From an uncultured Bacilli bacterium (GTDB taxonomy: Bacteria; Bacillota_I; Bacilli_A; RF39; UBA660), in assembly GCA_944363735.1 (NCBI GenBank), contig CALVVB010000003.1, positions 1-63,012 on the forward strand: a DNA stretch of 63,012 bases. The letters run 5' to 3'. The position numbers were made by a program, and so were the translations under genes. The notes beneath the pieces were generated by a model, which was given only the letters and a program-made list of their open reading frames with translations, did not search any database and had not been told where the DNA came from. Shown here piece after piece: positions 20,436-51,168 of the stretch; within the stretch, counting starts at the first letter, position 1; each line of letters begins with the position of its first letter.

Positions 20436-20654
20436 ATGTCTCAATTAGTTCAATATACAAGTAAAGAATTAGATTTACTAGCAAGATTAATGCGAGCAGA
20501 AGCAGTAGGTGAAGGAGATTATGGTATGCTTATGGTAGGTAATGTGGGTGTTAATAGAGTCCTTGCTAACTGTTATACATTTAGAAATATAAATACAATT
20601 GCCAAAATGGTATTTCAAAATCCAGGAGGGCTTTGTGAGTTAGTACCAACATAA
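20436..20654 (+). pseudogene. cwlJ: 5' part of a cwlJ-type spore cortex-lytic enzyme gene, interrupted by the prophage
   Basis: The first 65 codons match the CwlJ/SleB hydrolase N-terminus (ELDLLARLMRAEAVGEGDYGMLMVGNVGVNRV...MVFQNPGG). They are followed by 7 phage-derived codons (LCELVPT) and a stop. Confidence 0.85.
20604..20650. other. attL (B-O-P') of the serine-recombinase prophage
   Basis: Core CCAGGAGG at 20622-20629. Phage arm CTTTGTGAGTTAGTACC at 20631-20647 is the exact reverse complement of 50905-50921. Confidence 0.75.
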
Positions 20655-20809
20655 AAACTAGGCTGTTAACCTAGTTACTTTTTTAGGGGGTGAGCCGTAT
20701 TTCTACGACTCAGCTAATGACCTATATATAAATATAGGATGAAACACTTGCTACACTAGGTAGCTTTATGTGACTTTAATCATTTGCTTGTTGAACAAAT
20801 TCATAAAGC
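20651..20809 (-). ncRNA. candidate prophage-encoded small RNA 1 (ORF-less promoter-terminator unit)
   Basis: Minus-strand TTGATA (20839-44), 17 nt, TATAAT (20816-21). About 155 nt with no ORF longer than 15 codons and several hairpins. Ends at the terminator at 20656-76. Contains an unpaired-looking C-rich CACCCCC. Confidence 0.35.
20656..20676. terminator. bidirectional hairpin terminator at the attL-proximal phage end
   Basis: Stem AACTAGG/CCTAGTT with a 7-nt loop. T-run on the + strand (ACTTTTTT) and on the - strand (TTTTTAT). Confidence 0.6.
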
Positions 20810-20850
20810 AACTAAATTATATAATAATCTAACATTTTTATCAAGCATTA

Positions 20851-20929
20851 AAAAAGACCTAGAGGTTATTATTCCTCTAGGGTTTATTAATTATATAATA
20901 AATTATGTGAACTCAGATGTTGTTCTTTT
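20851..20929 (-). ncRNA. candidate prophage-encoded small RNA 2 (ORF-less promoter-terminator unit)
   Basis: Minus-strand TTGACA (20958-63), 16 nt, TAGAAT (20936-41). About 75 nt without an ATG. Ends at the 8-bp hairpin CCTAGAGG/CCTCTAGG (20858-81) plus TCTTTTTT. Confidence 0.3.
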
Positions 20930-21026
20930 GAAAATATTCTAGTATTTTTTTGTCATATGTCAAGTACCTCCTCGTATTTTATACTATTACTGGAGACACA
21001 AATATTTTGTCATATTTTATGACATT

Positions 21027-21058
21027 AAAAAACAGGTAGAGCCAATTAAGACTCTACC
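21027..21058 (-). terminator. Rho-independent terminator of the lysis/late operon
   Basis: Stem GGTAGAG/CTCTACC (21035-41 / 21052-58), followed on the minus strand by TGTTTTTT. Lies directly after the endolysin stop. Confidence 0.7.
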
Positions 21059-21064
21059 TTTTAA

Positions 21065-22057
21065 TTATTTAACTCTTAACTTTTGTCCTGGATAAATTAA
21101 ATTAGGGTTTGCTATGTTATTCCATGATACTAATTGCTTAACTGTTGTACCATATTTATTTGCTATCTTAGTAAGATTATCTCCACTTACTACCGTATAA
21201 TAAACAGTACTAGATCCTTGATTACTACTGCCAGGTATCTTTATCTGTTGTCCTGGATAAATTTTATTAGGATCTGCTATATTATTATATTCTGCCAATC
21301 TTTGATAAGTAGTTCCATATTTACTAGCAATACCACTTAAAGTATCTCCACTTACTACAGTATAAACTATTTCAGAACTGATATTTGTTGTAGTATCTGG
21401 TTGGCTATTATTAGACGAATTACTGCCTTTATTATAGCCATTTAAACCTGCATTTTTTATAATGTTTGGAAAATCTTCGTATGCATAATCTTGATCACAA
21501 ACAACACCAGCTACTTTGTTTGTTCTAACATAGTTAGTTTCACCACCAAATTGCCACATCTGACAATTAGGTTTCTTATTTTCAGTAGTCCAATATGCTC
21601 TCCATTGAGAATATTTCGCCGCTATTTCCTGTCCTTTAATTTCGTTATTAAAACAAGATTGGTTCATATAAACACCAGCAAAATAGCCTGCATTTTCTAA
21701 TGTTTCACACCATGCTGTAATTAAATCTGTTAGTTCTTGTACTGATAAATTAATTAATATTCTATCTTCAACATCTATATAAATAGGGTACTCAAACTTT
21801 TTACCTTTTAAACAATGGTCAATCAATAATTGAGCTTCCTCTCTTGCTTGAGCAACATTAGCAGCTCTGCTCCATTGATAAACACCAACATCTAAACCTG
21901 CATTTTTTGCCTTAGTATAATTACTTTCAAAAGCAACATCTTTAGCATTTCCATACATACCTCTAATAATTGCAAATTTAACCCCTTCATTTTTAGCAGT
22001 TTCTAAATTCATATCTCTTTGCCATACTGAGATATCTATACCGAATGTTTTTGTCAT
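21065..22057 (-). CDS. endolysin: GH25 muramidase plus two LysM domains
   Basis: 330 aa. GH25 N-terminus (FGIDISVWQ...YIDVED). Two C-terminal LysM repeats ([19 protein letters not shown]...YPGQQIKIP; [19 protein letters not shown]...YPGQKLRV). Confidence 0.92.
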
Positions 22058-22073
22058 AACTATTCACTCTCCT

Positions 22074-22322
22074 TTATTTATTTTTAATATTAATTAAATC
22101 TGCAATTCCACCTGCACCCATAGTTGCAACAAGACACAACACAAGTGCTTGTAATAGGTTTGGCTCAACACCTGTGAAAAAGCATATTAAGGCACTAATA
22201 ATACCTATAATTACATTCTGAATAGGAATGTATTTATTAGGTACACTATCAATAAATATCTTTGTGATAGCACCTAAAATGTAAGCTACTACTGCTATAA
22301 TTACTACATAAGTTATTTCCAT
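22074..22322 (-). CDS. phage holin
   Basis: 82 aa with 2-3 TM helices and a charged C-terminus. Immediately upstream of the endolysin. Confidence 0.78.
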   Translation of the reverse strand: MEITYVVIIAVVAYILGAITKIFIDSVPNKYIPIQNVIIGIISALICFFTGVEPNLLQALVLCLVATMGAGGIADLINIKNK

Positions 22323-22340
22323 ACTATCTACTCTCCTTTC

Positions 22341-22949
22341 TTACTTTGAATTAATAAGATGCTCTTCTACATACCAAACTAATTGATTAATTGCATCTTT
22401 ATCTACTTTCATATTTTCTTTATTAAACCAATGAATAGCAATAAAGCCAATGATGTTACCTTCTTTGTTATGTATTGCTATGTCATAAAATGAACCTACA
22501 TCTATACTCTTCTTAAAATTGTAAGTGCTAGGCATAGATGTTTTAAGTTCTTCTAAGTCTTCACATATAAACTTACCATCTTCAGTAATTCTATGAATAA
22601 ACTGAGGCATACAGTTTATTGGTAAATTAATGCATCTCTGTTGAACTGGCTGATTACCAGCCTTAAAGACTTCGTAAGTGCATGAGAACTTATAAGCTGA
22701 CCTATAATCAGAATAATGTTCTCCATTATGGAACTCATAGACGTGGATTCTATCAGCATTAAGTATCTCTTTTACATACTCTAATTTATTTAATATCTCT
22801 AAATCCAATTTATTCTGTCTAGGTAGCATCTTACCTATATTCGTCTTTTTGAAATATTTATTTAGATATTGTTTACAAAATAATAGGCTTACTATAACTA
22901 GTGCTATAAATTGTCCTATTTCTTTCGCAGTTTCTATTATTTCATTCAT
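22341..22949 (-). CDS. hypothetical membrane-anchored phage protein (possible moron)
   Basis: 202 aa. One N-terminal TM (FIALVIVSLLFC) and a ~160-aa soluble domain. Located between the tail-fibre cassettes and the holin. Confidence 0.55.
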   Translation of the reverse strand: MNEIIETAKEIGQFIALVIVSLLFCKQYLNKYFKKTNIGKMLPRQNKLDLEILNKLEYVKEILNADRIHVYEFHNGEHYSDYRSAYKFSCTYEVFKAGNQPVQQRCINLPINCMPQFIHRITEDGKFICEDLEELKTSMPSTYNFKKSIDVGSFYDIAIHNKEGNIIGFIAIHWFNKENMKVDKDAINQLVWYVEEHLINSK

Positions 22950-22965
22950 TGTTCCTCCTTTATTT

Positions 22966-23457
22966 TTATACTTTCAAGACTGATACAAACGAGCAGTCAT
23001 GTGATGCCCTTATGCTAGGGTTTCCTGAAGGAGATGTATAATCTACCTTCATTTGAATAATATCTCCTTCCTTTAAAGACACCACTTTAGCTGGAATTGA
23101 GCAAGTTGTATAATCTCTATTTATAATTCTTGCTAAATTACCTGTCACATTATTACCATTCACTGATATTTTAGCCCAAATATAATTATCGCCTAATGAT
23201 CCATCTACAAACAAAGCTCCACTTATAAGTGCAAAACAATCTTTCAAAACATTGATTTTGTGATTAATGCTATCAAGTTCAAAATAATTTCCACATTTTT
23301 CAGCATTAGCCATTAAAAATGTCATGTTATTATCGTTGTATATACTTTGATTTTCATTAAGATAGGCTACAATATAATTCTTCATTTCATATCTTTTATT
23401 AGGATTATCAAATTGCATAATTTTTCCATTTAACTTCAAAATATTATGATTCGCCAT
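22966..23457 (-). CDS. tail-fibre/receptor-binding-like cassette protein A (paralogue family)
   Basis: 163 aa. N-terminus HNILKLNGKIMQFDNPNKRYE is shared with the two upstream ORFs; the C-terminus is divergent. Confidence 0.55.
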   Translation of the reverse strand: MANHNILKLNGKIMQFDNPNKRYEMKNYIVAYLNENQSIYNDNNMTFLMANAEKCGNYFELDSINHKINVLKDCFALISGALFVDGSLGDNYIWAKISVNGNNVTGNLARIINRDYTTCSIPAKVVSLKEGDIIQMKVDYTSPSGNPSIRASHDCSFVSVLKV

Positions 23458-23486
23458 AATTAGATGGCTAATTATTTAACTCTCTC

Positions 23487-23915
23487 TCAATTATTAGAAT
23501 TATATATAAACTTTATTTCAGCCCAACCACTAAAATTTGACCTATCAATTGTAGTTTCAATTAAAAGATATAATATATTACTATTGACTTTTGTATTCAG
23601 ACCAATATTACTATTTGCCATACTTATAAAAGGAACAGGAATATATGTTTTATCACTACTTCTATAAGCCAAACATTCAATACTTGTTACAACTATTTCA
23701 TTAATATTTAAACCAGTATTTACTTCTAGGGCACTTGCATTTGGTAATTGAGCTATACTTATTCTTTTTATATACTCATCTTTTCCATCAACCTTTCGAC
23801 CTGTTTTTACTGGACTACCATTTGTTTTAAGATTATATTTTAATTCTTCATATCTCTTATTAGGATTATCAATTACTAAAATGTTATTTTCCTTTTCTAG
23901 GATATTATAATTCAC
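23487..23915 (-). CDS. tail-fibre/receptor-binding-like cassette protein B (paralogue family)
   Basis: 142 aa with an apparent GTG start. N-terminus YNILEKENNILVIDNPNKRYE. Confidence 0.5.
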   Translation of the reverse strand: MNYNILEKENNILVIDNPNKRYEELKYNLKTNGSPVKTGRKVDGKDEYIKRISIAQLPNASALEVNTGLNINEIVVTSIECLAYRSSDKTYIPVPFISMANSNIGLNTKVNSNILYLLIETTIDRSNFSGWAEIKFIYNSNN

Positions 23916-23934
23916 ACATTTCGCTTTTAGCTTA

Positions 23935-24339
23935 CTATGAGTTTTTCATTCCTATAACTTTAATGGGAATTACATGAATACTAGTGTCATCAAGGTTTCT
24001 TTTTGCAATTTGTGTTTTGTACTGTGTATCACTAACTCTATTAATAATTCTTCTTAATGACACACCATCTGTATACGAGACTGCTGAAATTAATAAACTA
24101 TTACCTTTCAAACAAGATTCACTAATATTATTACTATTAGACGTTGAATAAGCACATATCCATTCTAGTTCATCATAATCATCAGTAGATAAATTGATAA
24201 TCACATTTTCTCCCATTTCTTGACTAGGGTTACTATTAGTCCATAAGACTTTTCTTTTTCTCTTTTCATATTCTTTATTAGGATTATCAAAAGTTAGGAT
24301 TTTATCTCCTTTTTTCAGAATATTATGAACACTACTCAT
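23935..24339 (-). CDS. tail-fibre/receptor-binding-like cassette protein C (paralogue family)
   Basis: 134 aa. N-terminus HNILKKGDKILTFDNPNKEYE. RBS AAAGAGG. Confidence 0.55.
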   Translation of the reverse strand: MSSVHNILKKGDKILTFDNPNKEYEKRKRKVLWTNSNPSQEMGENVIINLSTDDYDELEWICAYSTSNSNNISESCLKGNSLLISAVSYTDGVSLRRIINRVSDTQYKTQIAKRNLDDTSIHVIPIKVIGMKNS

Positions 24340-24420
24340 AGTTACACCTCTTTAGAGAGAGAGAATTAAATACTAGCCTCTCCCTCCTTCCATCATTAGA
24401 GGAGTTAAGCCAAATAAGCT

Positions 24421-24430
24421 CCCCCCCCCC
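24421..24430. repeat. C10 (minus strand G10) homopolymer tract in the intergenic leader of the cassette genes
   Basis: Ten consecutive C in an otherwise very AT-rich window. A (GA)5-6/(TC)5 dinucleotide run lies at about 24353-24364. Confidence 0.95.
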
Positions 24431-24471
24431 ATGTAACATATTGTAAACTTATCATATTATCACTTTCCTTT

Positions 24472-25155
24472 CTATTCATCATCATACATAGAATCAATTA
24501 CTGCTTGTAATTCTTCATCTGTACAAGTTCCGAGAGTAATCATATTACTCTTTATATCATTTATTTCTACAAGTAATTCTCCTGCAGCATCCCCACTCAA
24601 TATCCCTTCCATCTGCTCAAATAAAGCATCAAATGCAGCCTGATATTGAGCAAATATTTCAGTAGTATCTAATTGTTGTACTGCTGATATTACTTGTCCG
24701 CAATCAGTAGAATTAAATCTACAGTCTTCTATCATTGATGTTGTTATACTATCAGCTTGTTTATTAACTGAAATATTACATAATCTTAATTCATATATAT
24801 TTGAATTTCTTGTAAGTTCTGGAGCTACTGGATTATCAGCATAAAATCCTTCTAAAACATCCGCTATTATCTGTCTATTTTCTTTAGAAAATCTTAGCAC
24901 AATACTATCTATTCTAGACTGTTCTGTATCTGATAAACTTATATTAATTACTTTATCAACCGGATTATTATAAAAGTATCCATTAATAAATGCTGTTCCT
25001 GATTTTAAAGTTACAGTCATATCATCATTAGCCTGTACTTGTAATTCATTGTTAAAAACACCATTAGTAAATAATTTTGAAAAAAAAGTGGCTATTAAGT
25101 CACTCTTATATTTTCTATCACCATTTATAGAGGCAAAAAAGCCTGATTCTTCCAT
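24472..25155 (-). CDS. putative tail fibre/baseplate protein
   Basis: 227 aa. N-terminal GFFASINGDRKYKSDLIATFFSKLFTNGVF resembles the conserved N-terminus of Firmicute phage tail-fibre proteins. Sits downstream of Tal. Confidence 0.5.
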   Translation of the reverse strand: MEESGFFASINGDRKYKSDLIATFFSKLFTNGVFNNELQVQANDDMTVTLKSGTAFINGYFYNNPVDKVINISLSDTEQSRIDSIVLRFSKENRQIIADVLEGFYADNPVAPELTRNSNIYELRLCNISVNKQADSITTSMIEDCRFNSTDCGQVISAVQQLDTTEIFAQYQAAFDALFEQMEGILSGDAAGELLVEINDIKSNMITLGTCTDEELQAVIDSMYDDE

Positions 25156-25169
25156 TTTATTTCACCACC

Positions 25170-27158
25170 TTAATCTAATTCTATTTTCTCAGCTAGAGGT
25201 TGTCCAAACGTAGGATATACAGATTTTGTACCATTTTCTATAGTTTCTTCAACCTCAGTAATTCTTAATGTTTCTTTTATATTCCAGTCAGCAATTTCTA
25301 CATCAACTATATCTCCTAAATCCCATTTAGTACGATAGTCATTTGATATAGCGGTAAACTCTATACTTTTTGTTTCATCACTTAACTTTTCCTTTCCTCT
25401 AGTTTCCAAAACATTTTTATATTCAGTAGATGAAAGATTATTATTACTTTCATTTTTAGCATCAAGAAAAGTTTCAAATAAATCAAAGCCCTCATAATCA
25501 CCTTTTTTAACTTCAACTAGAGTTCTACTAGTACCTTCTCCTGTACCACCTACTAAAACATAATTACATTTATCTATCAAAGTATCTGTATAAGTGGATT
25601 TTTCTAAATTATTGTGTGTTGTAGAAAATACATATCTTTCATTAAGACTCTGCTGACTAGAACGATTTAAACCAGTAAAGTTTTCAAATCTATATACTTT
25701 ATTTTCTATATTAGGAACTATTCTAAAACCTACATTTGAAAGTTTAGACAATTTACATAAATATTCATAAACATTTTTATAACTACATTGAAATTCAACA
25801 TAATCACTATCTATTGAAGTAGGTTCTATTTCAAAATCATCTGTTAATGCAGTCATTTCTCGTAAAAGTTGTTTCTGACCTTCTATTATGCTACCTTTAA
25901 AATTTATAATTTTACGAATAATTCTTCTTTTAGTTAAATAGGATAAAAAATTGCCAGATACTTTTAATTGAACATTATTTCCATCATCATTAAATTCAAT
26001 TGTATCAATTAGAGCAGCTTCATTATAATCTTGTCTAATAATTATATTATCTTTTTTAGATAACAAATTAATATTATTTTGATATGGGGCAACAACTAAC
26101 TCAAATTCTCCTGCTTCATAATACTTGCGTCTCCATCTCAAAGAAATAAATTGATCAACTACACCTAAAAAATTTAATTCTTTATCAAAAACATATAATG
26201 ATTCATCATTAGAATATGTTAATTCCCTTGAAATCTGTGAATAAGTTATAGGAATAGTACCAGTACTAGAATATCTTCCAGCTGATACTACATAATAGTT
26301 ATTAGCAAAAACAACACCATACATAACTGTTCTAACAAAATTATCTTGTTCTTCTACCCAGTCAATACCATTTATAGATGTTAAAATTGTTCCATTGTAA
26401 CCAACAGCAATAAAAGTACCATTTCCATATCTAGAACGTATTAAATAAGATGTTGTATTAGACTTTTGTTTAGTCCAATTAATACCATCTACTGACGTTA
26501 GAATTGTTCCATTAGCACCAGTTACTACAAACATATTTCTACCATAAATAACACCCACAAGTTTATCAGTAACGCCTGAATTGACTTTAGTCCAATTCTT
26601 TAAATCTTTAGAAATTATAATAGTTCCAGTACAACCAACAATAACATATAGGCCATTACCATAAGCTATATCCATACTATCAATATTATCAGGTCCATCA
26701 TATCTAAATTCATGTTTAGTAATATTATTGCCATCTATTGTTTCATAAATTTGAATTATCGTATAATTTCTAATACCTGTAACAATATTATAGTTATACC
26801 ATCCTGTTATAAAAACAAAACGATTATTAATAAAGCGACAAGAATTCGATGTCATCGAAAAATCTTTTCCTGTATTTATATTATTATAATTCCAATTAAT
26901 ACCATCATCAGATATAGCAATATATGTATTACTACCATCATTTGCATTTCCCGTTATCATAAATTTAGAATTTCCAAATGCTAAACTTTTTGTTTGAGAT
27001 ATCTTAGAAGAATCTAATTTAATATCAGTCCAATTCTTTAAATCATTACTATAAGCAATTCCACAAGGATCATAATGGGCAAGCCAAAACATTTCATTAG
27101 CATAAATAATATCTTGACCATATCCTTTAACATTGGTGTCTACATCAACCCACTTCAT
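25170..27158 (-). CDS. tail-associated/baseplate hub protein (Gp37-like C-terminal half) with N-terminal beta-propeller-like repeats
   Basis: 662 aa. Residues ~30-310 hold 5-6 ~45-aa repeats (G.NG.ILTS.DG.NW). The C-terminal half starts with the SLRWRRKYYEAGEFELV motif typical of siphovirus Tal/Gp37-like proteins. Position is after Dit. Confidence 0.6.
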   Translation of the reverse strand: MKWVDVDTNVKGYGQDIIYANEMFWLAHYDPCGIAYSNDLKNWTDIKLDSSKISQTKSLAFGNSKFMITGNANDGSNTYIAISDDGINWNYNNINTGKDFSMTSNSCRFINNRFVFITGWYNYNIVTGIRNYTIIQIYETIDGNNITKHEFRYDGPDNIDSMDIAYGNGLYVIVGCTGTIIISKDLKNWTKVNSGVTDKLVGVIYGRNMFVVTGANGTILTSVDGINWTKQKSNTTSYLIRSRYGNGTFIAVGYNGTILTSINGIDWVEEQDNFVRTVMYGVVFANNYYVVSAGRYSSTGTIPITYSQISRELTYSNDESLYVFDKELNFLGVVDQFISLRWRRKYYEAGEFELVVAPYQNNINLLSKKDNIIIRQDYNEAALIDTIEFNDDGNNVQLKVSGNFLSYLTKRRIIRKIINFKGSIIEGQKQLLREMTALTDDFEIEPTSIDSDYVEFQCSYKNVYEYLCKLSKLSNVGFRIVPNIENKVYRFENFTGLNRSSQQSLNERYVFSTTHNNLEKSTYTDTLIDKCNYVLVGGTGEGTSRTLVEVKKGDYEGFDLFETFLDAKNESNNNLSSTEYKNVLETRGKEKLSDETKSIEFTAISNDYRTKWDLGDIVDVEIADWNIKETLRITEVEETIENGTKSVYPTFGQPLAEKIELD

Positions 27159-28006
27159 TATACTGCCTCATAAGATAAGGAATATCTAATTTCAGTAGTT
27201 AAATTTTCTATTCCTTCTTCTGCTAAAATTTTAAAATTATTTTGCCCGGGCTTTAATTGTAGAAACTTTGTACCAAACAATAAATAATTATTTATATTTG
27301 TTTCAACACCATCTCTATTTAAAATAATGTTCTTATTATTTATACCTGTAGTAATTGTAACCACATCACCTATTACAAGATCATAGTCTAAAGTTAATAC
27401 TTCTTGATTAACTATATTTTTAATTGAAGGTTTTTTTACAGAACCACTACAAGTGAATATAATTGTTAACTCATTTTCAATTTTTGTGGGATTATTAATT
27501 TCTGCTACCATATTATTATTTTTAGTTTCAAACTCTATTCCCTCTTCAGGTATTTCTAAAGGAAATTCTATTCCTCCTTCCCAAGAAGCAAGAGGGATAA
27601 TAGTTTCTTCTATATCAGTAAAGAAAGGTTCAAAGGCAATTAAAGAAATTGTAAAATATCTAATGGGACCAGTTTTAGTAATTTCAACTTTTTCAACCCT
27701 ACATTTTATTTTGGAAGAAAAATCATCTTCATAATAAAAAAGAGTTCCCTCATCATTATCTGGAAAAGCATTATATAGGAATTGCCTTCTTTCAATAAAA
27801 TTATTTTTAAAGTATCCATAGATCATTATATTTCTTTTATTTATACTTCTTCCTACATAAAGTTCTCCAATTCCAAAAGCTGAGCTAACACCATATAATT
27901 CAGAAGATTTTTCATGAATCCCTGTATAATCTTCCAAAAAATAAGGAAATTTATTTGTTAATTCAATTTTGTTTCCATAAGAGTTTTCATATACCAATTT
28001 TTCCAT
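27158..28006 (-). CDS. distal tail protein (Dit)
   Basis: 282 aa, immediately downstream of the tape measure with an ATGA-type overlap with Tal. The call rests on position and size. Confidence 0.65.
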   Translation of the reverse strand: MEKLVYENSYGNKIELTNKFPYFLEDYTGIHEKSSELYGVSSAFGIGELYVGRSINKRNIMIYGYFKNNFIERRQFLYNAFPDNDEGTLFYYEDDFSSKIKCRVEKVEITKTGPIRYFTISLIAFEPFFTDIEETIIPLASWEGGIEFPLEIPEEGIEFETKNNNMVAEINNPTKIENELTIIFTCSGSVKKPSIKNIVNQEVLTLDYDLVIGDVVTITTGINNKNIILNRDGVETNINNYLLFGTKFLQLKPGQNNFKILAEEGIENLTTEIRYSLSYEAV

Positions 28007-28009
28007 ATC

Positions 28010-42685: not shown

Positions 42686-42686
42686 G

Positions 42687-42998
42687 CTATTTATCCTCCT
42701 TTACCAATTTCGCTAATTCTTCTAGATCAACTACTCCATTTTTAAATAATTGTTCTATCCTTTGTAACTTATTTTCTCGTTTAGTTAAAAATTTATTTAA
42801 TTCTTCCAATTTTGGACTATCTTTTACCGCTATAACTTTTGCATTAATATTATCTAAAATAATATCTACTGTCTCAGAAGATATTCTCATAGCAAAAGTT
42901 TTTGATAATGTTACCCTTACTACTTCTTTTTTACCTTCATTTTCTATTAAATCAAAACTAGTTATAAATAAATTTCCTATTTGTAAAATATAAGTCAT
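42687..42998 (-). CDS. hypothetical phage protein
   Basis: 103-aa ORF. Confidence 0.5.
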   Translation of the reverse strand: MTYILQIGNLFITSFDLIENEGKKEVVRVTLSKTFAMRISSETVDIILDNINAKVIAVKDSPKLEELNKFLTKRENKLQRIEQLFKNGVVDLEELAKLVKEDK

Positions 42999-43012
42999 TT
43001 CTTTTCCTCCTT

Positions 43013-43840: not shown

Positions 43841-43978
43841 TGTTTTCCCCTTTCATAAACTTTAACAATGCCAAACTCAGTAAGACAAACTCGCATTGCT
43901 AATCAACAGTAAAATACAAGAAGGGAGGCATGAAAGATAATCAAGGAGTGTTATTATTCTTACTTTTTTAATAAAAAG

Positions 43979-44227
43979 CTAATTGTTATACTTATCTATA
44001 ATTGCTTTCTCAATACCCTCTCTCAAATCAGAAACTATCGGATGAACATAATCATAATACTTTCCATCATTACCTTTTTGGCTAGGAAATGCTATAAACA
44101 TTTTATCTTTAGATTCTATTAATCTAATATTATGAATTGCCAAACTATCATCTAAAATAATAGTTGCATATCCTTTAACAGCTCCTTTTTCTTCTACTTT
44201 TTTTAAATTTACATTTGTTACTTTCAT
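43979..44227 (-). CDS. spoVG: SpoVG-family protein (phage-encoded)
   Basis: 82 aa, colinear with SpoVG. Matches include MKVTNVNLKKV, ATIILDDSLAIHNIRLIE, MFIAFPSQK..DGK and VHPI. Confidence 0.88.
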   Translation of the reverse strand: MKVTNVNLKKVEEKGAVKGYATIILDDSLAIHNIRLIESKDKMFIAFPSQKGNDGKYYDYVHPIVSDLREGIEKAIIDKYNN

Positions 44228-44739
44228 TATTTATTCTTCCTTTCTTCTCTTCTTAAATATTTTTTTGCATTTTTTTTACTAGTTAATACTTTAATTTTTT
44301 CATTAAGTTGAATAATAGATGACTGCAACTTACTCTTTTCTTCATTAATTACTGATAGTTTCTCTTTTAATTCACTATTTTCATTATTCAAATCTTTAAT
44401 ATTTTCCCTTAACTCATCATTAATTCTTAAATACTGCTCTTGCTTTTGCATAATAGCATCTAGTTCATTATTCAACTTTTTATTTTCTCTTTTAAAACCA
44501 CCTTTAGCACCATTGGCTTTTCTTAATAAGTTTTTATATTCTTTTACCTTTTCACGTAATTCTTCACGTATATTAGCAAATGATTTAATTTGTTCCTCTA
44601 AATATTCTTTATCTCTTTCAAGTCCATCTATTTTAGATTTTTTTAAATTCAAACGATTATTTAAGTTACAAATTTCTAGCTCATTATTTAAAAGTTCATC
44701 TTGCAATTCTTCATATCTCTTTTTAGTCAAAAGTTTCAT
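44227..44739 (-). CDS. coiled-coil phage protein
   Basis: 170 aa, K/E-rich heptad-like sequence. Confidence 0.5.
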   Translation of the reverse strand: MKLLTKKRYEELQDELLNNELEICNLNNRLNLKKSKIDGLERDKEYLEEQIKSFANIREELREKVKEYKNLLRKANGAKGGFKRENKKLNNELDAIMQKQEQYLRINDELRENIKDLNNENSELKEKLSVINEEKSKLQSSIIQLNEKIKVLTSKKNAKKYLRREERKNK

Positions 44740-45074
44740 AACACCTCAATTACCTCCCTCTTTTCTAATTTAAATAGCAAATTAGTTACTAGTTCTTCAA
44801 GTTGCTTATTTTTTTGCTTAAGTTGATTTATTTCTTTACGCAATTTTATATTTTCCAACAAACATTTATCATGAGTATCAAATAACCCTAACTTAAGTAA
44901 CTCTGTAGGTAACATTAAATACTTATCACTACAATATACATCATAAGTATTACCTGTTACTTCTTCTAACCTACTAACCCACTTTTCCAATTCTTTTAGT
45001 TCTTTTTCCACCTTTTTATTCCTTTCTCCATCCATTTGGTTCATTGTATTTTTTATTAGTTCCTTTAACATCAA
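44736..45074 (-). CDS. hypothetical phage protein
   Basis: 112-aa ORF. Confidence 0.5.
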   Translation of the reverse strand: MMLKELIKNTMNQMDGERNKKVEKELKELEKWVSRLEEVTGNTYDVYCSDKYLMLPTELLKLGLFDTHDKCLLENIKLRKEINQLKQKNKQLEELVTNLLFKLEKREVIEVL

Positions 45075-46278
45075 ACCTTTGATTTAGTTGATTATATTCA
45101 AGAGTAAGAATACCAGTTTGACCATTCCTATTTTTACCAATTATTACTTCGATTTCTTCTATTTCCATTTCTACACCTTTATAATAATTTTCATTATGTA
45201 GCATTAAGACTGTAGTTGCTGACTGTTCTAGTTCTCCAGTCTCTTTAAGATCACTAATCTTAGGTCTCTTATCTTTTGTGTTTTCAGAATTTCTATTAAT
45301 TTGGGCCACTAGAAAGATAGTACAGTCATAATCTAATGATATTTGTCTTAATTCTTTAACAATAGCAGTTGTCTTCTCATATAGAGACTTAGTCTTATCA
45401 TTACTTCCAATTAATCCCACATAGTCAATAAAAGCCAGTGTATGTCCTTGTTTACTCTCTTCAATAATTCTTTTTCTAATACTAGAAATAGTTTGACTTC
45501 TACTAATTACTTTAATACTTTTATTAGCAATAGCTTTACTTCCCTTAATCAGTTGTTCTTTCTGATATTCAGTCGCTGGATTATCATGATAGATAATTGG
45601 AATTTTAGTATTTATACCAACAAGTCTTTGATATACTTGTTTATCACTCATTTCCATATTAAATAAAATGCAATTATATCTATCTGATAAATCCTCAAAC
45701 AAATTTAATATAAAGCCTGTTTTGCCAATACCTGGTCTAGCAGCTACTACAACTAAATCATGCTCTTGTATATTTGCATACTTAGATAATTTTTCAAATC
45801 TAAAATTAATCCCTTTATTTTTAGAATTTATTATCTTAAATACTTCTTCCCCAGATAATCTATCTGCTGATGTTTTAATACTTAAAGCTTCGTATTTATG
45901 AATATCTGTTAATAATTCCTCTTGGGATATTTGATTGTTTTTAAACTTATCAATAACATTTAAGATTAAACTATTTACATATCTTTCAAATAGTAATTCC
46001 TGATAATAGTCAAACCTATTACCAAACGAGTTTGTCATAATATTAACCAGTTTATTAATTATTACCTCTTGATTAAATCGTTGATTAAATAAATACTTAT
46101 ATTTTTCTCCTAATGCCACTAAATCAACATTTCTAATATCTTGATACTGTTTTTTTAGAAGCTTAACTATAAATCTATTTTCAATGTTTTTAAAGCACTC
46201 ATCTGGAATAATAAGTTTAGCAATATTCTCAGGATGTAATATTAAACAACCTATTACTTCTTCTTCTAAATCTAACAT
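45016..46278 (-). CDS. DnaB-like replicative helicase
   Basis: 420 aa. Walker A ARPGIGKTGF, Walker B FIDYVG and further RecA-fold helicase motifs. Confidence 0.85.
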   Translation of the reverse strand: MLDLEEEVIGCLILHPENIAKLIIPDECFKNIENRFIVKLLKKQYQDIRNVDLVALGEKYKYLFNQRFNQEVIINKLVNIMTNSFGNRFDYYQELLFERYVNSLILNVIDKFKNNQISQEELLTDIHKYEALSIKTSADRLSGEEVFKIINSKNKGINFRFEKLSKYANIQEHDLVVVAARPGIGKTGFILNLFEDLSDRYNCILFNMEMSDKQVYQRLVGINTKIPIIYHDNPATEYQKEQLIKGSKAIANKSIKVISRSQTISSIRKRIIEESKQGHTLAFIDYVGLIGSNDKTKSLYEKTTAIVKELRQISLDYDCTIFLVAQINRNSENTKDKRPKISDLKETGELEQSATTVLMLHNENYYKGVEMEIEEIEVIIGKNRNGQTGILTLEYNQLNQRFDVKGTNKKYNEPNGWRKE

Positions 46279-46934
46279 TATTCAAGCCTCCGATAATGAC
46301 ACTCTTCACTATCTTCACTCTGCTGCTCTTTTCTTTTCTTCAATTGTTTTTTGATAGAATTAATATCTTTTAAATTAGCTTTATCCCACTCATAAAGGAT
46401 TTTATCAGTGTATTTAACATTATAAACTTGATTCAGGACTGTCTCTTTAATAGCAAGTCTTATAATTTCAGGATCATATTTCCATGAAGTAATAAATTCA
46501 ACTTCTGATGATGATAATGTCCTACCAAATTCTTTTTCAACAAAATCCAATACATTACCATTTACATTAACATTATCATTACCATTTACATTAACATTTA
46601 CATTTACATTAGGTTTTTTATTTTGAAACCCTTGGTTTTCACTTTCAAAACCAGTGGTTTTTTTATAGTTTTCTTCATAGTTATTAGGTAGGTTATTATC
46701 ATCTTTTTTAGATGGCCTACCACCCTTTTTACCATCTTTTTTTCTTTTAGTGTTGGCATCTAATTGTGGTTTTGCCATTATAAACAATGATTCTAATTCT
46801 TCATCTAAATCAGGCTCAATACCAGTCAAAGCATAATCAATTATTGCCTCATAAAATGCTAACCTTTTATCATCACTCTTCTTTTTTACTGCTTTTCTAA
46901 AACTATCATAAAAAACAAAACTATCTTGTATCAT
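46278..46934 (-). CDS. phage replisome organizer / DnaD-domain replication initiator
   Basis: 218 aa. Replisome-organizer-like N-terminus, an Asn/Val hexapeptide-repeat linker, and a C-terminal DnaD-like FGRTLSSSEVEFITSW. Confidence 0.75.
   Translation of the reverse strand: MIQDSFVFYDSFRKAVKKKSDDKRLAFYEAIIDYALTGIEPDLDEELESLFIMAKPQLDANTKRKKDGKKGGRPSKKDDNNLPNNYEENYKKTTGFESENQGFQNKKPNVNVNVNVNGNDNVNVNGNVLDFVEKEFGRTLSSSEVEFITSWKYDPEIIRLAIKETVLNQVYNVKYTDKILYEWDKANLKDINSIKKQLKKRKEQQSEDSEECHYRRLE
46551..46610. repeat. ten tandem hexamers (NNCATT; minus strand AATGNN) inside the replisome-organizer gene
   Basis: TACATT ACCATT TACATT AACATT ATCATT ACCATT TACATT AACATT TACATT TACATT. Encodes NVNVNVNGNDNVNVNGNV. 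Confidence 0.9.
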
Positions 46935-46949
46935 ACTAGCCCTCCTGAA

Positions 46950-47144
46950 TTACTTATTTATCATATAATTTCTAACCTCATAATAAGTACACAATGATCC
47001 TTTTTCTTGGTCACACATAGCAGCATAATTATCAAAAGAACTAGAACTATCACGTATTAAGTTAGCAATAATAATTGCTATAATAATTCCAAATAATATT
47101 AATAATGTTAATTTAAACCATTTTCTTAATCTTGCTTTTCTCAT
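46950..47144 (-). CDS. small membrane protein
   Basis: 64 aa with one TM helix. Confidence 0.45.
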   Translation of the reverse strand: MRKARLRKWFKLTLLILFGIIIAIIIANLIRDSSSSFDNYAAMCDQEKGSLCTYYEVRNYMINK

Positions 47145-47260
47145 ATTTTTACATTTATGACATTTTGTGATAAAATAAAGTTGTTAATTTATTTAACAGA
47201 AGATTAATTGCTGACTGGCTTTAATCTTTCTTTTTTTATCTGATGCCATAATCTCCTTCC

Positions 47261-47371
47261 CTATTCATTACTATTTTCAATTTTAGCTACAATTTCTACA
47301 CCATATTTATCAGTTAATATTTCTGCTAAGACTTGCCAGAGTCTTAATTCTAAGTCGCTAGGTAAATTCAT
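47261..47371 (-). CDS. possible 36-aa early protein
   Basis: MNLPSDLELRLWQVLAEILTDKYGVEIVAKIENSNE, behind a strong RBS TAGGAGGTA. Below the track cutoff. Confidence 0.3.
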   Translation of the reverse strand: MNLPSDLELRLWQVLAEILTDKYGVEIVAKIENSNE

Positions 47372-47460
47372 ATTTATACCTCCTATTAAATTTTATTCGA
47401 CTTATTTTTTATAAGTACGTAGTGGATATTAATTTCATTTTTCATATCGACATAAAACTT

Positions 47461-47703
47461 TTATGACTCTTTTCTTTGCGTTTTCGCAAGAACTCGATTA
47501 AAAAAAATAAACAAATCTATATTATATGGCTTTAATAATTGCTCTATTTTGGATAAATTCATATCTTTTAATCCTATCTCATACTTACTAATAGTACTTG
47601 TTGCAACACCAGTTTTTATAGCAAGTTCTTCTTGTGAATCACCATTCTCGATTCTAACTATTTTTAATTCTGAACCTACTATTTTTAAAAAATCTGCTTT
47701 CAT
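47461..47703 (-). CDS. Cro-like XRE-family HTH regulator
   Basis: 80 aa. HTH SQEELAIKTGVATSTISKYEIG. Divergent from the cI-like gene and the first gene of the leftward early operon. Confidence 0.75.
   Translation of the reverse strand: MKADFLKIVGSELKIVRIENGDSQEELAIKTGVATSTISKYEIGLKDMNLSKIEQLLKPYNIDLFIFFNRVLAKTQRKES
47476..47489. promoter_or_regulatory. operator-like 14-bp dyad TTGCGTTTTCGCAA (O3)
   Basis: Same TTGCG-N3/4-TCGCAA dyad as the sites in the divergent promoter region. Lies in the 3' end of the cro-like ORF. Confidence 0.4.
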
Positions 47704-47732
47704 TTTCTACCTCCTTACAATTAGAGTTTACT

Positions 47733-47746
47733 ATGCTTTTTCGCAA
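47733..47746. promoter_or_regulatory. operator-like site ATGCTTTTTCGCAA (O1) inside the cro-side promoter
   Basis: 12/14 match to O3. Sits between the minus-strand -35 TTGACA (47748-53) and the -10 TAAACT. Confidence 0.4.
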
Positions 47747-47761
47747 ATGTCAACAAAAATA

Positions 47762-47775
47762 TTGCGAAATCGCAA
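47762..47775. promoter_or_regulatory. operator-like dyad TTGCGAAATCGCAA (O2) overlapping the -35 of the cI-side promoter
   Basis: TTGCGA (47762-67), 17 nt, TATTAT (47785-90), upstream of RBS AAAGGAGGAG/ATG at 47814. Confidence 0.45.
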
Positions 47776-47813
47776 AAAAAGTTGTATTATGATTTTATGA
47801 AAGGAGGAGAATC

Positions 47814-48158
47814 ATGAACTTCTTTTCTAAAAATCTAGAATATTTAAGAAAACAAAAAGGTCTGTCAAGAGCAGAATTATCAAAAAAATTAAATGTAAAT
47901 CAGTCAACTATATCTCGTTGGGAAAATGGAGATATGGGAGTAACTGTTGACAATGCTTATGATGTTGCCAATTTCTTTAACATTTCAATTTCTGATTTAA
48001 CAGGAAAAGATATTACTAATTCAAAAAATAGTTTTGACGAATTAGAACTGCTTTTTGATAAAAATAAAGATATATTAACTGATGAAGATAAAGAATATAT
48101 GAAATTTATAATAGAAAAAAGGAAAAGAGAAATTGATAAACAGTTAGGAGATGAATAA
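47814..48158 (+). CDS. CI-like XRE-family repressor
   Basis: 114 aa. HTH SRAELSKKLNVNQSTISRWENG. First gene of the rightward lysogeny operon. Confidence 0.8.
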   Translation: MNFFSKNLEYLRKQKGLSRAELSKKLNVNQSTISRWENGDMGVTVDNAYDVANFFNISISDLTGKDITNSKNSFDELELLFDKNKDILTDEDKEYMKFIIEKRKREIDKQLGDE

Positions 48159-48478
48159 TGAAAAAAACAACTTTACTAATTGTACTATTAATAATTATTA
48201 TTTTAGTTTTATCTGTAATCGTAGTCATCCAATTTAATAGTAATAATAAACTAAATAATACAATTAACTTGCTAATTGATGATAATTTTGTTGAAGCCGA
48301 AAAATATATAAAAAATAATAACTTATATAAAAATATTGATTATGATTTATTAGTAAAAAAAATAAATAATCAACCAACTGCAAGATTAGACTCAAATTCT
48401 AAAACTGGCAAAGTTATAGACTGGTATGATGAATATACTTGCAAACGTTTTATTAATGATTATGATATATGCAATTAA
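48158..48478 (+). CDS. membrane-anchored lysogeny-module protein
   Basis: 106 aa. N-terminal TM LLIVLLIIIILVLSVIVVI. ATGA overlap with the repressor gene. Confidence 0.55.
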   Translation: MKKTTLLIVLLIIIILVLSVIVVIQFNSNNKLNNTINLLIDDNFVEAEKYIKNNNLYKNIDYDLLVKKINNQPTARLDSNSKTGKVIDWYDEYTCKRFINDYDICN

Positions 48479-48500
48479 AAGTATGCTAGTATAGGTACTT
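48475..48500 (+). repeat. 26-bp direct repeat copy 1: TTAAAAGTATGCTAGTATAGGTACTT
   Basis: Starts at the stop codon of 48158-48478. 25/26 identical to 48837-48862. Confidence 0.9.
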
Positions 48501-48522
48501 AATAAAAAGGGGAAATGAAACA

Positions 48523-48840
48523 ATGAATTTACATAATTTATTAAGTGGAGAAATAACACAAAAAGAATTATTAAATTATTATAATGCTAATATTACTTAT
48601 ATAAGATTACCAAAATATATAAATGGTTGTGTGTTTCCTTACAAAGGTATTAACAATATTTATATAAACGAAAGTTTATCTTATTATAAAAAGAAAAAAA
48701 CTATAATACACGAACTAGCACATATAGAGTTAAATCATTTATATCAAATAGATAAAGAAATATATTATAAAAAAGATAAATATGAAGATGAAGCAGATAA
48801 ATATATAGACTTTCTTTTAAATAATATTAAACACGTTTAA
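48523..48840 (+). CDS. ImmA/IrrE-like zinc metallopeptidase (short)
   Basis: 105 aa with HEXXH (IIHELAHIELNH). Located in the repressor operon. Confidence 0.55.
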   Translation: MNLHNLLSGEITQKELLNYYNANITYIRLPKYINGCVFPYKGINNIYINESLSYYKKKKTIIHELAHIELNHLYQIDKEIYYKKDKYEDEADKYIDFLLNNIKHV

Positions 48841-48862
48841 AAGTATGCTAGTATAGGTGCTT
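48837..48862 (+). repeat. 26-bp direct repeat copy 2: TTAAAAGTATGCTAGTATAGGTGCTT
   Basis: Starts at the stop codon of 48523-48840 and precedes the Ltp-like gene RBS. Confidence 0.9.
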
Positions 48863-48900
48863 TTAATATAAATTTTATCGCAGTAAAGGAGGTGTAAATC

Positions 48901-49413
48901 ATGGAAGTAGAAAAAAAGAAAATGCCAAAATGGGCAATTGTAGTTATTATAGTAGTAGTTATTTGTATAATTGGTGGATTAACTGGTGGAAATAATAGTA
49001 ATCTTTCAAATAATAGTAATGATAACAATAATCAAGAAGAACAACAAACTGATAAAGTAACAGAAACAATAGAAGAAAATGAAGATACTCAAACTGTTGA
49101 AGAAACTATACCAACTGAATATAGAAATGCTTTAAATCAAGCTGATACCTATGCTAATGTTATGCACATGTCTAAACAAGGAATATATGATCAACTAACT
49201 TCTAAATATGGAGGACAATTTGAAGCAGATGCAGCCCAATATGCAATAGATAATGTTCAAGCCGACTGGAATGCTAATGCACTTGCTAAAGCTAAAGATT
49301 ATCAAGATACAATGAGTATGTCCAAAAATGCAATATATGATCAATTAGTTTCAGAATATGGAGAACAATTTACTGCTGAAGAAGCACAATATGCTATTGA
49401 TAATTTAAATTAA
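48901..49413 (+). CDS. Ltp-family surface protein (superinfection-exclusion type), two Ltp repeats
   Basis: 170 aa. N-terminal membrane anchor. Duplicated ~45-aa repeat (ALNQADTYANVMHMSKQGIYDQLTSKYGGQFEADAAQYAIDN / ALAKAKDYQDTMSMSKNAIYDQLVSEYGEQFTAEEAQYAIDN). Confidence 0.85.
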   Translation: MEVEKKKMPKWAIVVIIVVVICIIGGLTGGNNSNLSNNSNDNNNQEEQQTDKVTETIEENEDTQTVEETIPTEYRNALNQADTYANVMHMSKQGIYDQLTSKYGGQFEADAAQYAIDNVQADWNANALAKAKDYQDTMSMSKNAIYDQLVSEYGEQFTAEEAQYAIDNLN

Positions 49414-49552
49414 AAAAAGACCTCGTACTGGCATACGAGATCAAAACAGAAAATATTTCAATACCCACTACGATAAGAAATTTTTTTCTGCTATTTAATT
49501 ATAGCATTAAAATCTTTTCTTATCAATAAAATTAAAGAAAGGAAGTGCTATA

Positions 49553-50905
49553 ATGATTAAAAATGTAGCAATATACTGTCGTGTATCAACTGAAGAGCAA
49601 AAAAAGTTTGGAATATCAGTTGATGATCAAAAAAACAGTTTAACAGAATATTGTAAAAGAAATAAATATAAAATATATGACTATTATATAGATGAAGGAG
49701 TATCTGCTGGAACAATATCCAAAAGAAAAGAATTTGTAAGACTGCTCAAAGACCTTGATAATATAGACTTAATTATTTTTACAAAATTAGATAGATTTTC
49801 AAGAAATGTAAGAGATGCTAATAATCTACTAGTAGAATTAGATAAACATAACACTTCATTTAAAGCTATAGATGAGGACGATATAGACACTTCTACTGCT
49901 GATGGCAGATTTATATTCAACCTCAAAGTAAATCTAGCAGAGCACGAAAGAAATAAGGACTCTGAACGTATTAATAGAGTTAATAATTATAAATATAAAG
50001 TTGCTAAAACTGTATGCAGTGGACAAAAAATCTTTGGATATGATATAGATGAAGGAAAACATTTAGTAGTAAATCTTAAAGAAGCAGAACAACTAAATGA
50101 ATTGTACGATTACTATTTAAAAACATCTAGCTTAGTTAAAAGCTATACATGGTTTAAAAATAATGTAGCAAATAAAAGTTTAGGTACTGTAAGAAATTAT
50201 CTTACTGATAGTAAATATATAGGAAAATTTATAACAACTAAAAATAAAGAAGTATTAGAAGACTTTTGTCCTGCAATAATAGATGAAGATAAATTTTATA
50301 AAGTGCAGAAAGAATTAAAAAGGAATATAAAAACAACTAATTATAAGACAAAAAGGGATTATATCTTTAGCGGATTAATAATATGTAAAGAATGTGGTTT
50401 TAAAATGGCAGGAGGAACTAGAGGGGCTAGATATGACTTTACAAAAATATATAAGTGTAAACATCATTATGTAGATAAAGTCTGTGTTAATACCACTTCA
50501 TTAACCGAAAAATATATTGAAGACTATTTAAAAGAAAATATTTTAAAAATAGCAGAAAATAATATCTTAAAGGCACAAAAAAAGAAGAAAATAACTAGTA
50601 AAAATAAAGCAGCAGAAATAAAAAACAAAATGAATAAACTTGTAGATTTATATCTTAATGATTTAATAGACAAAGATAAATATAATCAGGACTACAATTA
50701 TTTAAAAGAAGAGTTAAAGAAAGAAGAACAAGCGACCAAAGAAGAACAAAATATTAACATAGATAATCTTCAAAAATTTCTAAAAATGGATTTCTTAACC
50801 ATTTATGACACTTTAACAGATGTAGAAAAGCAAAGATTATGGCGAAGCATTATTGATAATATAACAATAGATAATAACAAAAACATAACTATTAATTTTT
50901 TATAG
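49553..50905 (+). CDS. large serine recombinase (prophage integrase)
   Basis: 450 aa. Resolvase catalytic N-terminus IYCRVSTEEQ, recombinase domain, Zn-ribbon CKECGF...CKHH...C and C-terminal coiled coil. Its stop lies at the start of the P arm of attR (17-bp repeat at 50905-50921). Confidence 0.93.
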   Translation: MIKNVAIYCRVSTEEQKKFGISVDDQKNSLTEYCKRNKYKIYDYYIDEGVSAGTISKRKEFVRLLKDLDNIDLIIFTKLDRFSRNVRDANNLLVELDKHNTSFKAIDEDDIDTSTADGRFIFNLKVNLAEHERNKDSERINRVNNYKYKVAKTVCSGQKIFGYDIDEGKHLVVNLKEAEQLNELYDYYLKTSSLVKSYTWFKNNVANKSLGTVRNYLTDSKYIGKFITTKNKEVLEDFCPAIIDEDKFYKVQKELKRNIKTTNYKTKRDYIFSGLIICKECGFKMAGGTRGARYDFTKIYKCKHHYVDKVCVNTTSLTEKYIEDYLKENILKIAENNILKAQKKKKITSKNKAAEIKNKMNKLVDLYLNDLIDKDKYNQDYNYLKEELKKEEQATKEEQNINIDNLQKFLKMDFLTIYDTLTDVEKQRLWRSIIDNITIDNNKNITINFL

Positions 50906-50948
50906 GTACTAACTCACAAAGACCTGGAGGTTTCGCTGGTATAAACAG
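50904..50948. other. attR (P-O-B')
   Basis: Phage arm GGTACTAACTCACAAAG at 50905-50921. Core CCTGGAGG at 50923-50930. Host sequence resumes with TTTCGCTGG. Confidence 0.75.
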
Positions 50949-51168
50949 TCCCCAATTCACATCAGGTTCCACTATCAAAGAAAGAGAACTAGCAGAAAGA
51001 ACTTTAAAAGGAGAATATTACTATCCTGCAACCAATGCATTATGGTTCTATGCACCAGGAAGAAATAGTAATTGTATTAGTACTTGGTATGATCAAGCCT
51101 TAGCAGGAAGATTTAAAAATCATTGTTTCTATGCCCCTGATCCAAATGTATGTCCACCTCTGCATTAA
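50929..51168 (+). pseudogene. cwlJ: 3' part of the cwlJ-type gene (ATG-less; needs prophage excision to be expressed)
   Basis: Open frame GFAGINSPQFTSGSTIKERELAERTLKGEYYYPATNALWFYAPGRNSNCISTWYDQALAGRFKNHCFYAPDPNVCPPLH*. Colinear with the CwlJ C-terminus (WYF.P...CP..WYNQ..VARFKSHCFY.P). Confidence 0.85.

Follow-up and report, generated by a model that had tools for sequence, protein, structure and literature searches.

Several prophages and prophage-like elements are known to sit inside genes of the sporulation programme, among them SPbeta in spsM, skin and PhiS63 in sigK, vfbin in spoVFB, vrin in spoVR, gin in gerE and yin in yabG (PMC4191935, PMC5499854, PMC5025042, PMC3442830, PMC5595907, PMC10747680). 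Some of these are fully capable viruses: SPbeta is an active phage that can also enter a lytic cycle (PMC4191935, PMC5499854), and PhiS63 demonstrates that a fully functional phage can fill the sigK-interrupting role (PMC3442830, PMC5025042). The yin element was reported as unique to one strain, in which integrated and circular forms coexist (PMC10747680). Here we describe a prophage of about 30.3 kb that splits cwlJ, a gene for a germination enzyme, in a 63,012-nucleotide stretch of contig CALVVB010000003.1 (the window) from an uncultured bacterium of the Bacilli lineage RF39. This locus has three features in common with the sporulation-gene-intervening elements: it lies inside the coding sequence of a predicted mother-cell gene, it carries its own large serine recombinase (LSR) gene at the junction, and its excision restores the reading frame.

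The split gene, the recombinase and the attachment sites are arranged in the window as follows.

20436..20629, + strand: cwlJ 5' half, codons 1-65, ending ...QNPGG (from the open reading frame (ORF), the join, the CwlJ alignment and the ends of intact-locus alignments)
20622..20629, + strand: attL core CCAGGAGG, with its A from the host allele
20630..20647, + strand: left phage arm of attP, G followed by CTTTGTGAGTTAGTACC, an inverted repeat of the right arm (from the sequence; joined to the right arm in contig L082)
49553..50905, + strand: LSR of 450 aa with catalytic motif YCRVSTEEQ (Ser12) (from Pfam)
50905..50921, + strand: right phage arm of attP, GGTACTAACTCACAAAG, overlapping the recombinase stop codon (from the sequence)
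50923..50930, + strand: attR core CCTGGAGG, with its T from the phage
50931..51168, + strand: cwlJ 3' half, codons 66-143, FAGINSPQF...CPPLH and then a stop, with no start codon of its own (from the ORF, the join and the alignments)

The two outermost features are two parts of one 143-codon cwlJ gene. The 5' ORF (20436-20654) encodes MSQLVQYTSKELDLLARLMRAEAVGEGDYGMLMVGNVGVNRVLANCYTFRNINTIAKMVFQNPGG, 65 CwlJ-like residues that run into 7 phage codons (LCELVPT) and a stop at 20652-20654. The 3' half lies in an open frame without a start codon (50929-51168), which begins 24 nt past the TAG of the recombinase gene (50903-50905) and reads ...RPGGFAGINSPQF...NHCFYAPDPNVCPPLH to its stop. A scan of the + strand of the window for CC[AT]GGAGG returned just two matches, CCAGGAGG at 20622-20629 and CCTGGAGG at 50923-50930, and joining the halves in silico at any position within this 8-bp core gives a single in-frame ORF of 432 nt. 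The joined protein matches the whole Pfam Hydrolase_2 profile (PF07486) over residues 25-132 with 55 bits, and either half by itself falls below the cut-off of 27 bits. End to end, and colinear across the junction, the rebuilt protein aligns with B. subtilis CwlJ (142 aa) at 45% identity over 136 residues (E = 1e-45); the query used for this comparison matched the database entry 'cell wall hydrolase CwlJ [Bacillus subtilis]' exactly. It also has the layout of CwlJ, with 143 aa, one Hydrolase_2 domain, and no signal peptide or peptidoglycan-binding domain. Assignment to the SleB equivalog (TIGR02869) was rejected at 37.4 bits against a cut-off of 236.5, with an alignment limited to the catalytic-domain part of the model, and the rebuilt CwlJ had no match among PDB sequences at E <= 0.01. 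A sequence-only reading of this DNA had proposed a CwlJ N-terminus of about 65 aa followed by 7 unrelated codons, a start-less C-terminal frame beyond a 450-aa serine recombinase, an in-frame union of 65 + 78 = 143 aa at a shared CC(A/T)GGAGG core, colinearity of the fragments with B. subtilis CwlJ, and a full phage genome between them; every coordinate and feature that it gave was reproduced.

Uninterrupted alleles were sought by comparing the rebuilt protein with one genome per species, which yielded 357 relatives, and the best 80 reference-genome loci were examined for interruption. The top relatives are uncultured gut Bacilli, some of them in records labelled 'Tenericutes', and include Candidatus Onthousia species. 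The intact CwlJ of one such locus (L001) has 100% protein identity to the in-silico reconstruction, so that both halves are without amino-acid change. At about 24 syntenic uninterrupted loci in close relatives, the left-flank alignment stops at 20629 and the right-flank alignment begins at 50917 or 50923, with an overlap that corresponds to the core. These alignments break exactly at the junction predicted beforehand, and the insertion is therefore a precise, strain-specific one of 30,301 bp. The site encodes residues Q61, P63, G64, G65 and F66, which are invariant in the CwlJ protein alignment, and the core in intact alleles is CCAGGAGG in 36/79, CCTGGAGG in 14/79, and other third-position variants in the rest.

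Upstream of cwlJ, annotation shows two DUF3048 genes, and downstream a tRNA-Trp and a Fic gene. The DUF3048 (YerB-like) genes are tandem paralogues (18000-20353, - strand) with about 76-78% DNA identity, divergent from cwlJ, and the pair is kept in close relatives. Downstream of cwlJ and the tRNA-Trp, the segment 51370-53070 is a variable island by comparison with L001-L020, containing the Fic gene, an HTH gene and ORFs of unknown function; even between closely related strains its content differs, and other contigs have Abi_2, HD_4 or different genes there.

Natural junctions of the same kind were recovered from public assemblies, which were looked up by exact LSR-relative proteins. In more than 20 contigs, an LSR gene whose product is 86-100% identical to that of the window precedes the arm and core seen here and then a 3' half of cwlJ (attR), and the host flanks beyond it vary, with Fic, Abi_2, HD_4 or 3HCDH genes. 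The contig L082 (...GGTACTAACTCATAAAGACCTGGAGGGCTTTGTGAGTTAGTACCAACATAAAAACTAGGCTGTTAACC...) has the right end of the phage joined to its left end at the core and corresponds to the predicted attP base for base. Further attP forms occur among relatives in L091 (78% identical LSR), L093 and L094 (65%) and L110, and phages with 95%-identical LSRs are found as attP junctions in nature. Such contigs represent circular or free phage, and excision at the cwlJ site thus does occur in this phage group. A scan of IMG/VR with the LSR protein gave 18 pattern matches, 0 of them confirmed, and a scan of the same resource with a degenerate attP pattern gave zero matches.

The choice of target extends well beyond close relatives of this phage. 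Elements with LSRs 58-100% identical to that of the window always interrupt cwlJ at the codons used here. Both orientations and several host lineages are represented, and the CwlJ proteins of the hosts are only 62-74% identical to that of the window. The LSR P0157, for instance, is 65% identical and uses the same codons in a host whose CwlJ is just 62% identical. Elements with the LSRs P0176 and P0179 (58-60% identical; L096-L101) occupy the same PGG codons in the opposite orientation, with the LSR gene adjoining the cwlJ 5' half. Another relative, P0237 (54% identical; L102-L104), is inserted elsewhere, in a Zip-family (PF02535) gene. The recurrence of the same codons across LSRs of 58-100% identity indicates that cwlJ is an old and stable attB within this clade; the gene is the dedicated attB of the whole recombinase clade. 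In a study of the mouse gut virome, cwlJ and sleB are listed as auxiliary or 'virulent' genes of temperate phages (PMC10578192). Speculatively, host cwlJ fragments at prophage edges may account for some of these entries, and split cwlJ genes beside prophages may explain some of the 'phage-encoded cwlJ/sleB auxiliary genes' of gut viromes.

The recombinase itself contains the three domains expected of an LSR: Resolvase (PF00239, 116 bits) and, both above their cut-offs, Recombinase (PF07508, 37.5 bits) and Zn_ribbon_recom (PF13408, 35.4 bits). Its closest counterparts in deposited phages, those of the Enterococcus phiFL phages and C. difficile phiCD27, reach merely 35-36% identity. The LSR gene ends 17 nt short of the attR core. 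The attP site is pseudo-palindromic, with 17-bp inverted arms GGTACTAACTCACAAAG and CTTTGTGAGTTAGTACC around ACCTGGAGGG, and shares the 8-bp core with attB; long direct repeats are absent. Because position 3 of the core is the host A in attL and the phage T in attR, the crossover must lie to the right of that position; it falls within GGAGG, probably at the central GG dinucleotide, as judged from the symmetry centre of attP. By analogy with other LSRs, the enzyme is predicted to catalyse integration between attP and attB, with excision between attL and attR requiring a recombination directionality factor (RDF) in addition. In the proposed mechanism, the LSR recombined attP with the cwlJ attB at the codons for the invariant Q-x-P-G-G-F. 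The lysogen is left with a promoter-bearing 65-codon cwlJ stub closed by a phage terminator and a promoterless, start-less tail of 78 codons. Recombination of attL with attR by LSR and RDF would then remove the phage seamlessly and return the wild-type 143-codon cwlJ.

Between the two cores lies what appears to be a complete, functional temperate siphovirus of uncultured, low-G+C, Ca. Onthousia-like gut Bacilli.

20630..50922, unstranded: prophage body, siphovirus-type, complete-looking, about 30.3 kb (from PHROG and Pfam matches)
20656..20676, unstranded: bidirectional terminator-like hairpin just inside attL
21065..22322, - strand: lysis cassette, with endolysin 21065-22057 and holin 22074-22322 (from PHROG/Pfam)
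24472..38585, - strand: virion structural and packaging genes, from TerS (38196-38585) and TerL (36545-38215) through the tail and receptor-binding genes (from PHROG/Pfam)
47461..48840, unstranded: lysogeny switch (from the window ORFs and the Pfam annotation of L081-L090, which share the gene layout exactly)
47461-47703, - strand: Cro-like HTH protein of the lysogeny switch
47814-48158, + strand: CI-like HTH repressor of the lysogeny switch
48523-48840, + strand: ImmA-like M78 protease of the lysogeny switch
48901..49413, + strand: Ltp-type surface lipoprotein with two Ltp repeats, a superinfection-exclusion candidate (from Pfam Lipoprotein_Ltp, E = 2.7e-49)

The G+C content of the prophage is 27.3%, the same as that of the host flanks. 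PHROG and Pfam matches identify the endolysin, holin, tail proteins, Dit, tape measure, major tail, neck, major head, protease, portal, TerL and TerS. The early region has a DnaD-like gene by direct match and probably a DnaB helicase gene, to judge from the identical gene layout in L081, and a 106-aa membrane protein also belongs to the lysogeny switch. The hairpin at 20656-20676 would insulate the phage from the cwlJ promoter. The Ltp lipoprotein gene is immediately upstream of the LSR gene; in Streptococcus phages, members of this family act in superinfection exclusion.

The early region encodes a second recombinase, a tyrosine-type (XerD-like) one (43013-43840, - strand; Phage_integrase, 91 bits), which could serve in dimer resolution or be the remnant of another integration module. 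The same region encodes a SpoVG-family protein (43979-44227, - strand; 93 bits) and an AbrB/MazE/SpoVT-type protein (41280-41513, - strand). Both families include developmental regulators of Firmicutes and could conceivably link the phage to host development. Between the ltp and LSR genes (49411-49526, - strand), a strong extended -10 promoter of the sigma-A type, TTGATA-17-TGcTATAAT, is directed away from the LSR gene, with a terminator about 50-80 nt downstream and no intervening ORF. Similar arrangements occur at the same position in L091, L092, L096, L099 and L102, with the promoter read by eye in L092, L096 and L102 only. A small RNA at this position was rejected as a conserved feature, since only the terminator hairpin is conserved and shows covariation, though one could still be made there. 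Two consecutive ORF-less promoter-terminator units also lie between the endolysin gene and attL (20656-20963, - strand).

20963-20936 and 20844-20816, - strand: promoters of the two ORF-less units
20881-20858 and 20676-20656, - strand: terminators of the two ORF-less units

These units may be moron-type small RNAs or the remnant of a type I toxin-antitoxin system. An Rfam scan of the whole window found the tRNA-Trp alone, with no match to the ORF-less units.

Three host features bear on the expression of cwlJ and on sporulation.

20395..20421, + strand: putative cwlJ mother-cell (sigma-K/E-type) promoter, AC-N16-CATAAAGTA, 14 nt before the ATG (from motif conservation)
20426-20432, + strand: cwlJ ribosome-binding site (RBS), AGGTGAT
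115..330, - strand: host gene for an alpha/beta-type small acid-soluble spore protein (SASP), outside the element (80% identity and E = 1.6e-20 by tblastn; 68.9 bits for Pfam SASP, whose cut-off is 22)

The consensus for sigma-K is CATA---TA with an AC element at -35, and that for sigma-E is similar. At 53/66 loci of cwlJ orthologues, corresponding to 27/37 independent upstream clusters, the motif CATAnnnTA is found 10-22 nt ahead of the ATG, compared with 27/570 (4.7%) of control ORFs from the same loci. Alongside this conserved -10, the -35 element of cwlJ is a weak AC. Within the window, cwlJ is the sole ORF that combines CATAnnnTA with an RBS and the sole properly placed match to the full motif. 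The SASP gene is preceded by GTATG-N17-CATTCTA (about 340-370, - strand) and GGAGGTG, a promoter of the forespore form that matches the sigma-G/F consensus. Alpha/beta SASPs are a hallmark of endospore formers. This, combined with the conserved sigma-K/E-like promoter, suggests that cwlJ here is very probably a mother-cell sporulation gene, with its expression predicted from the promoter motif and from B. subtilis. In the latter organism cwlJ is among the sigma-E regulon genes and is stimulated by SpoIIID, as are spoIVCA and spoIVCB, and logos of the sigma-E and sigma-K promoters are available from the same work (PMC517825). The presence of a SASP gene can be set beside a published inference that every SASP was lost ancestrally in reduced Bacilli ('Tenericutes') lineages (PMC10868615). 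The rest of the 32-kb host flank is mostly housekeeping (ThiI, IscS-like, LigA, PcrA, Pta, EzrA, RpsD, sortase and pilin, YfhO and the two DUF3048 proteins); Pfam searches of this flank gave housekeeping genes only, and the SASP gene emerged later with a tblastn probe.

The timing of excision is where the possible readings of this locus diverge. The one that we favour, with about even confidence, is that the phage excises on induction and, in addition, in the mother cell as it differentiates terminally, as a switch of the SPbeta/spsM type. CwlJ would then be made for the spore coat and the forespore chromosome would keep the prophage, and spores of the lysogen would get this cortex-lytic enzyme only if the phage leaves the mother-cell chromosome. 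We regard excision in the mother cell as the most likely course because cwlJ is very probably a mother-cell gene and lysogen spores would otherwise be without CwlJ. The characterised interruptions of mother-cell genes considered here excise during sporulation or in a growth-phase-dependent manner (PMC4191935, PMC5595907, PMC10747680). The broader proposal, that a widespread clade of cwlJ-specialised phages controls, as a developmental switch, how competent the spores of genome-reduced gut Bacilli are to germinate, is a tentative one.

The strongest alternative, which we consider quite possible, is ordinary lysogeny with insertional inactivation. The cwlJ codons would be a mere landing site and the gene would stay broken through sporulation; excision would follow ImmR/ImmA-type induction only and lead to lysis, and other cortex-lytic enzymes would compensate. 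Several observations weigh against mother-cell excision or in favour of this alternative. LSR phages often integrate into coding sequences that have no developmental role, and conservation of the site would by itself account for an attB in an invariant protein motif. Carriage of the prophage among strains is sporadic, with 0/80 of the best reference-genome loci interrupted, and the phage is controlled by a CI/Cro/ImmA set of the standard type, suggestive of the usual kind of induction. The attP contigs prove excision or free phage and are silent on its timing. Neither a sporulation-type promoter nor an RDF was recognised in the phage: CATAnnnTA or CATA[CT]AnT occurs within 120 nt upstream of 0/51 prophage genes, LSR included, in a consensus scan that divergent or indirect control could escape, and the few full-motif matches within the phage lie inside coding sequence on the strand opposite to the genes. 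That no RDF is recognisable had been remarked in the sequence-only reading, and the same outcome was reached by Pfam scans of the small ORFs of the early region and by comparison of the small ORFs beside related LSRs; a 36-aa ORF (47261-47371) and a 64-aa ORF (46950-47144) are candidates by position only.

The host side of the argument is also mixed. Sporulation of this lineage rests on prediction, and the predictions conflict, with PMC10868615 predicting it for some families of RFN20, RF39 and ML615J-28 and PMC12536801 assigning 0% sporulation to those related orders; the link from Ca. Onthousia to the RFN20 predictions is an indirect one. PMC13393411 describes CwlJ as partly redundant with SleB in Bacillus, so loss of CwlJ might be tolerated, and CwlJ could be of greater importance in some of these lineages, to judge from PMC13492147. 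Against ordinary lysogeny stand the retention of this one mother-cell gene as target by a whole LSR clade, in hosts of such divergent CwlJ sequence and in both orientations, the developmental or growth-phase regulation under which the characterised LSR elements in mother-cell genes considered here excise, and the undecayed state of both cwlJ halves.

That the prophage is dead and locked, with cwlJ permanently lost as a true pseudogene of this strain, is very improbable. The RDF result would agree with such a state, but long intact ORFs represent every phage module that would be expected, the LSR retains its full length, catalytic motif and three domains, the att arms and core are intact in a group whose 95%-identical-LSR members occur as attP junctions, and the cwlJ halves have no amino-acid change relative to the intact allele. 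An assembly chimera, in which phage and gene halves of a metagenomic contig from an uncultured organism were wrongly joined, has a negligible likelihood, and chance or artefact behind the split was rejected, given that the same attR junction recurs in more than 20 independently assembled metagenome contigs from various samples and host strains, that the junctions show the expected LSR att architecture, and that the G+C of phage and host are equal. Even taken jointly, a dead prophage or an assembly artefact is a very unlikely explanation.

No element in cwlJ is described in the full-text literature that was searched, a scope that leaves subscription-only papers (e.g., Abe et al. 2013) outside, in line with the sequence-only reading, to which cwlJ was not known as a characterised target. 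The matching architecture and the lack of a report on cwlJ together place this locus as a new target and host group within the known sporulation-gene-intervening prophages. The class of element is known; what is new is the target, a germination enzyme gene, along with the host group and a dedicated LSR clade that has natural attP evidence. Under the broader proposal of a germination switch, no earlier intervening element would be known in the gene of a germination enzyme or in this group of bacteria, a phage would gate the germination and hence the host-to-host transmission of a gut commensal, and the locus would provide indirect evidence for a canonical sigma-G/sigma-K programme in 'Tenericutes-like' lineages of metagenome-assembled genomes. 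If excision is linked to sporulation, the list of phage-switched genes would extend from sigK, spsM, spoVFB, spoVR, gerE and yabG to a germination effector, the phenomenon would no longer be confined to cultured Bacillus and Clostridium but would include uncultured gut Bacilli of reduced genome, in which sporulation is debated, and phage carriage could modulate spore germination and thereby the transmission of gut commensals. Whatever the timing, the locus offers a new orthogonal LSR/attP/attB set with natural variants in both orientations, possibly of use as an integration tool, and direct sequence evidence of a conserved sporulation programme in the lineage comes from the SASP gene together with promoters of the sigma-G and sigma-K types.

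Among known systems, SPbeta in B. subtilis spsM (SprA/SprB) is similar in being a temperate phage inside a mother-cell gene, with a terminal LSR gene and an excision that restores the frame. The target there is a spore polysaccharide gene, whereas here it is the cortex hydrolase gene cwlJ, and the element here is a 30-kb HK97-like siphovirus, far smaller than SPbeta at about 134 kb. The LSR of the window is at most 36% identical to phage integrases in the collection searched, and its host belongs to an uncultured, genome-reduced lineage of gut Bacilli. Neither an SprB-like RDF nor a sporulation promoter was found in the present element, and sporulation-linked excision is proposed for cwlJ by analogy.

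The skin elements (B. subtilis SpoIVCA; C. difficile CD1231/CD1234), which lie in sigK, and PhiS63 of C. perfringens sigK likewise depend on excision by an LSR to rebuild a mother-cell gene. Unlike skin elements, which are defective and largely fixed, the element in cwlJ is complete and sporadic. Its target is a late effector enzyme rather than a sigma factor, and the insertion would thus leave sporulation itself unblocked. The vfbin, vrin and gin elements of Bacillus and Geobacillus also split mother-cell genes at a short core repeat by means of a serine recombinase, and the repeat of gin is 9 bp compared with 8 bp here. Those elements are defective or not phage-derived, in contrast to the cwlJ prophage, and their recombinase or RDF is regulated by sporulation.

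The Listeria phages A118 and phi10403S in comK are a case of active lysogeny, in which an LSR prophage works as a reversible switch triggered by intracellular growth. They resemble the cwlJ prophage in splitting a host gene and excising precisely, and differ in their trigger, their target gene and their unrelated host. Lastly, yin in yabG of Clostridium botulinum V73 is, like the present element, a strain-specific LSR prophage in a spore-related gene whose attB is conserved in other strains. The target gene and the host class are different, and here a whole LSR clade is found in cwlJ across many samples and lineages.

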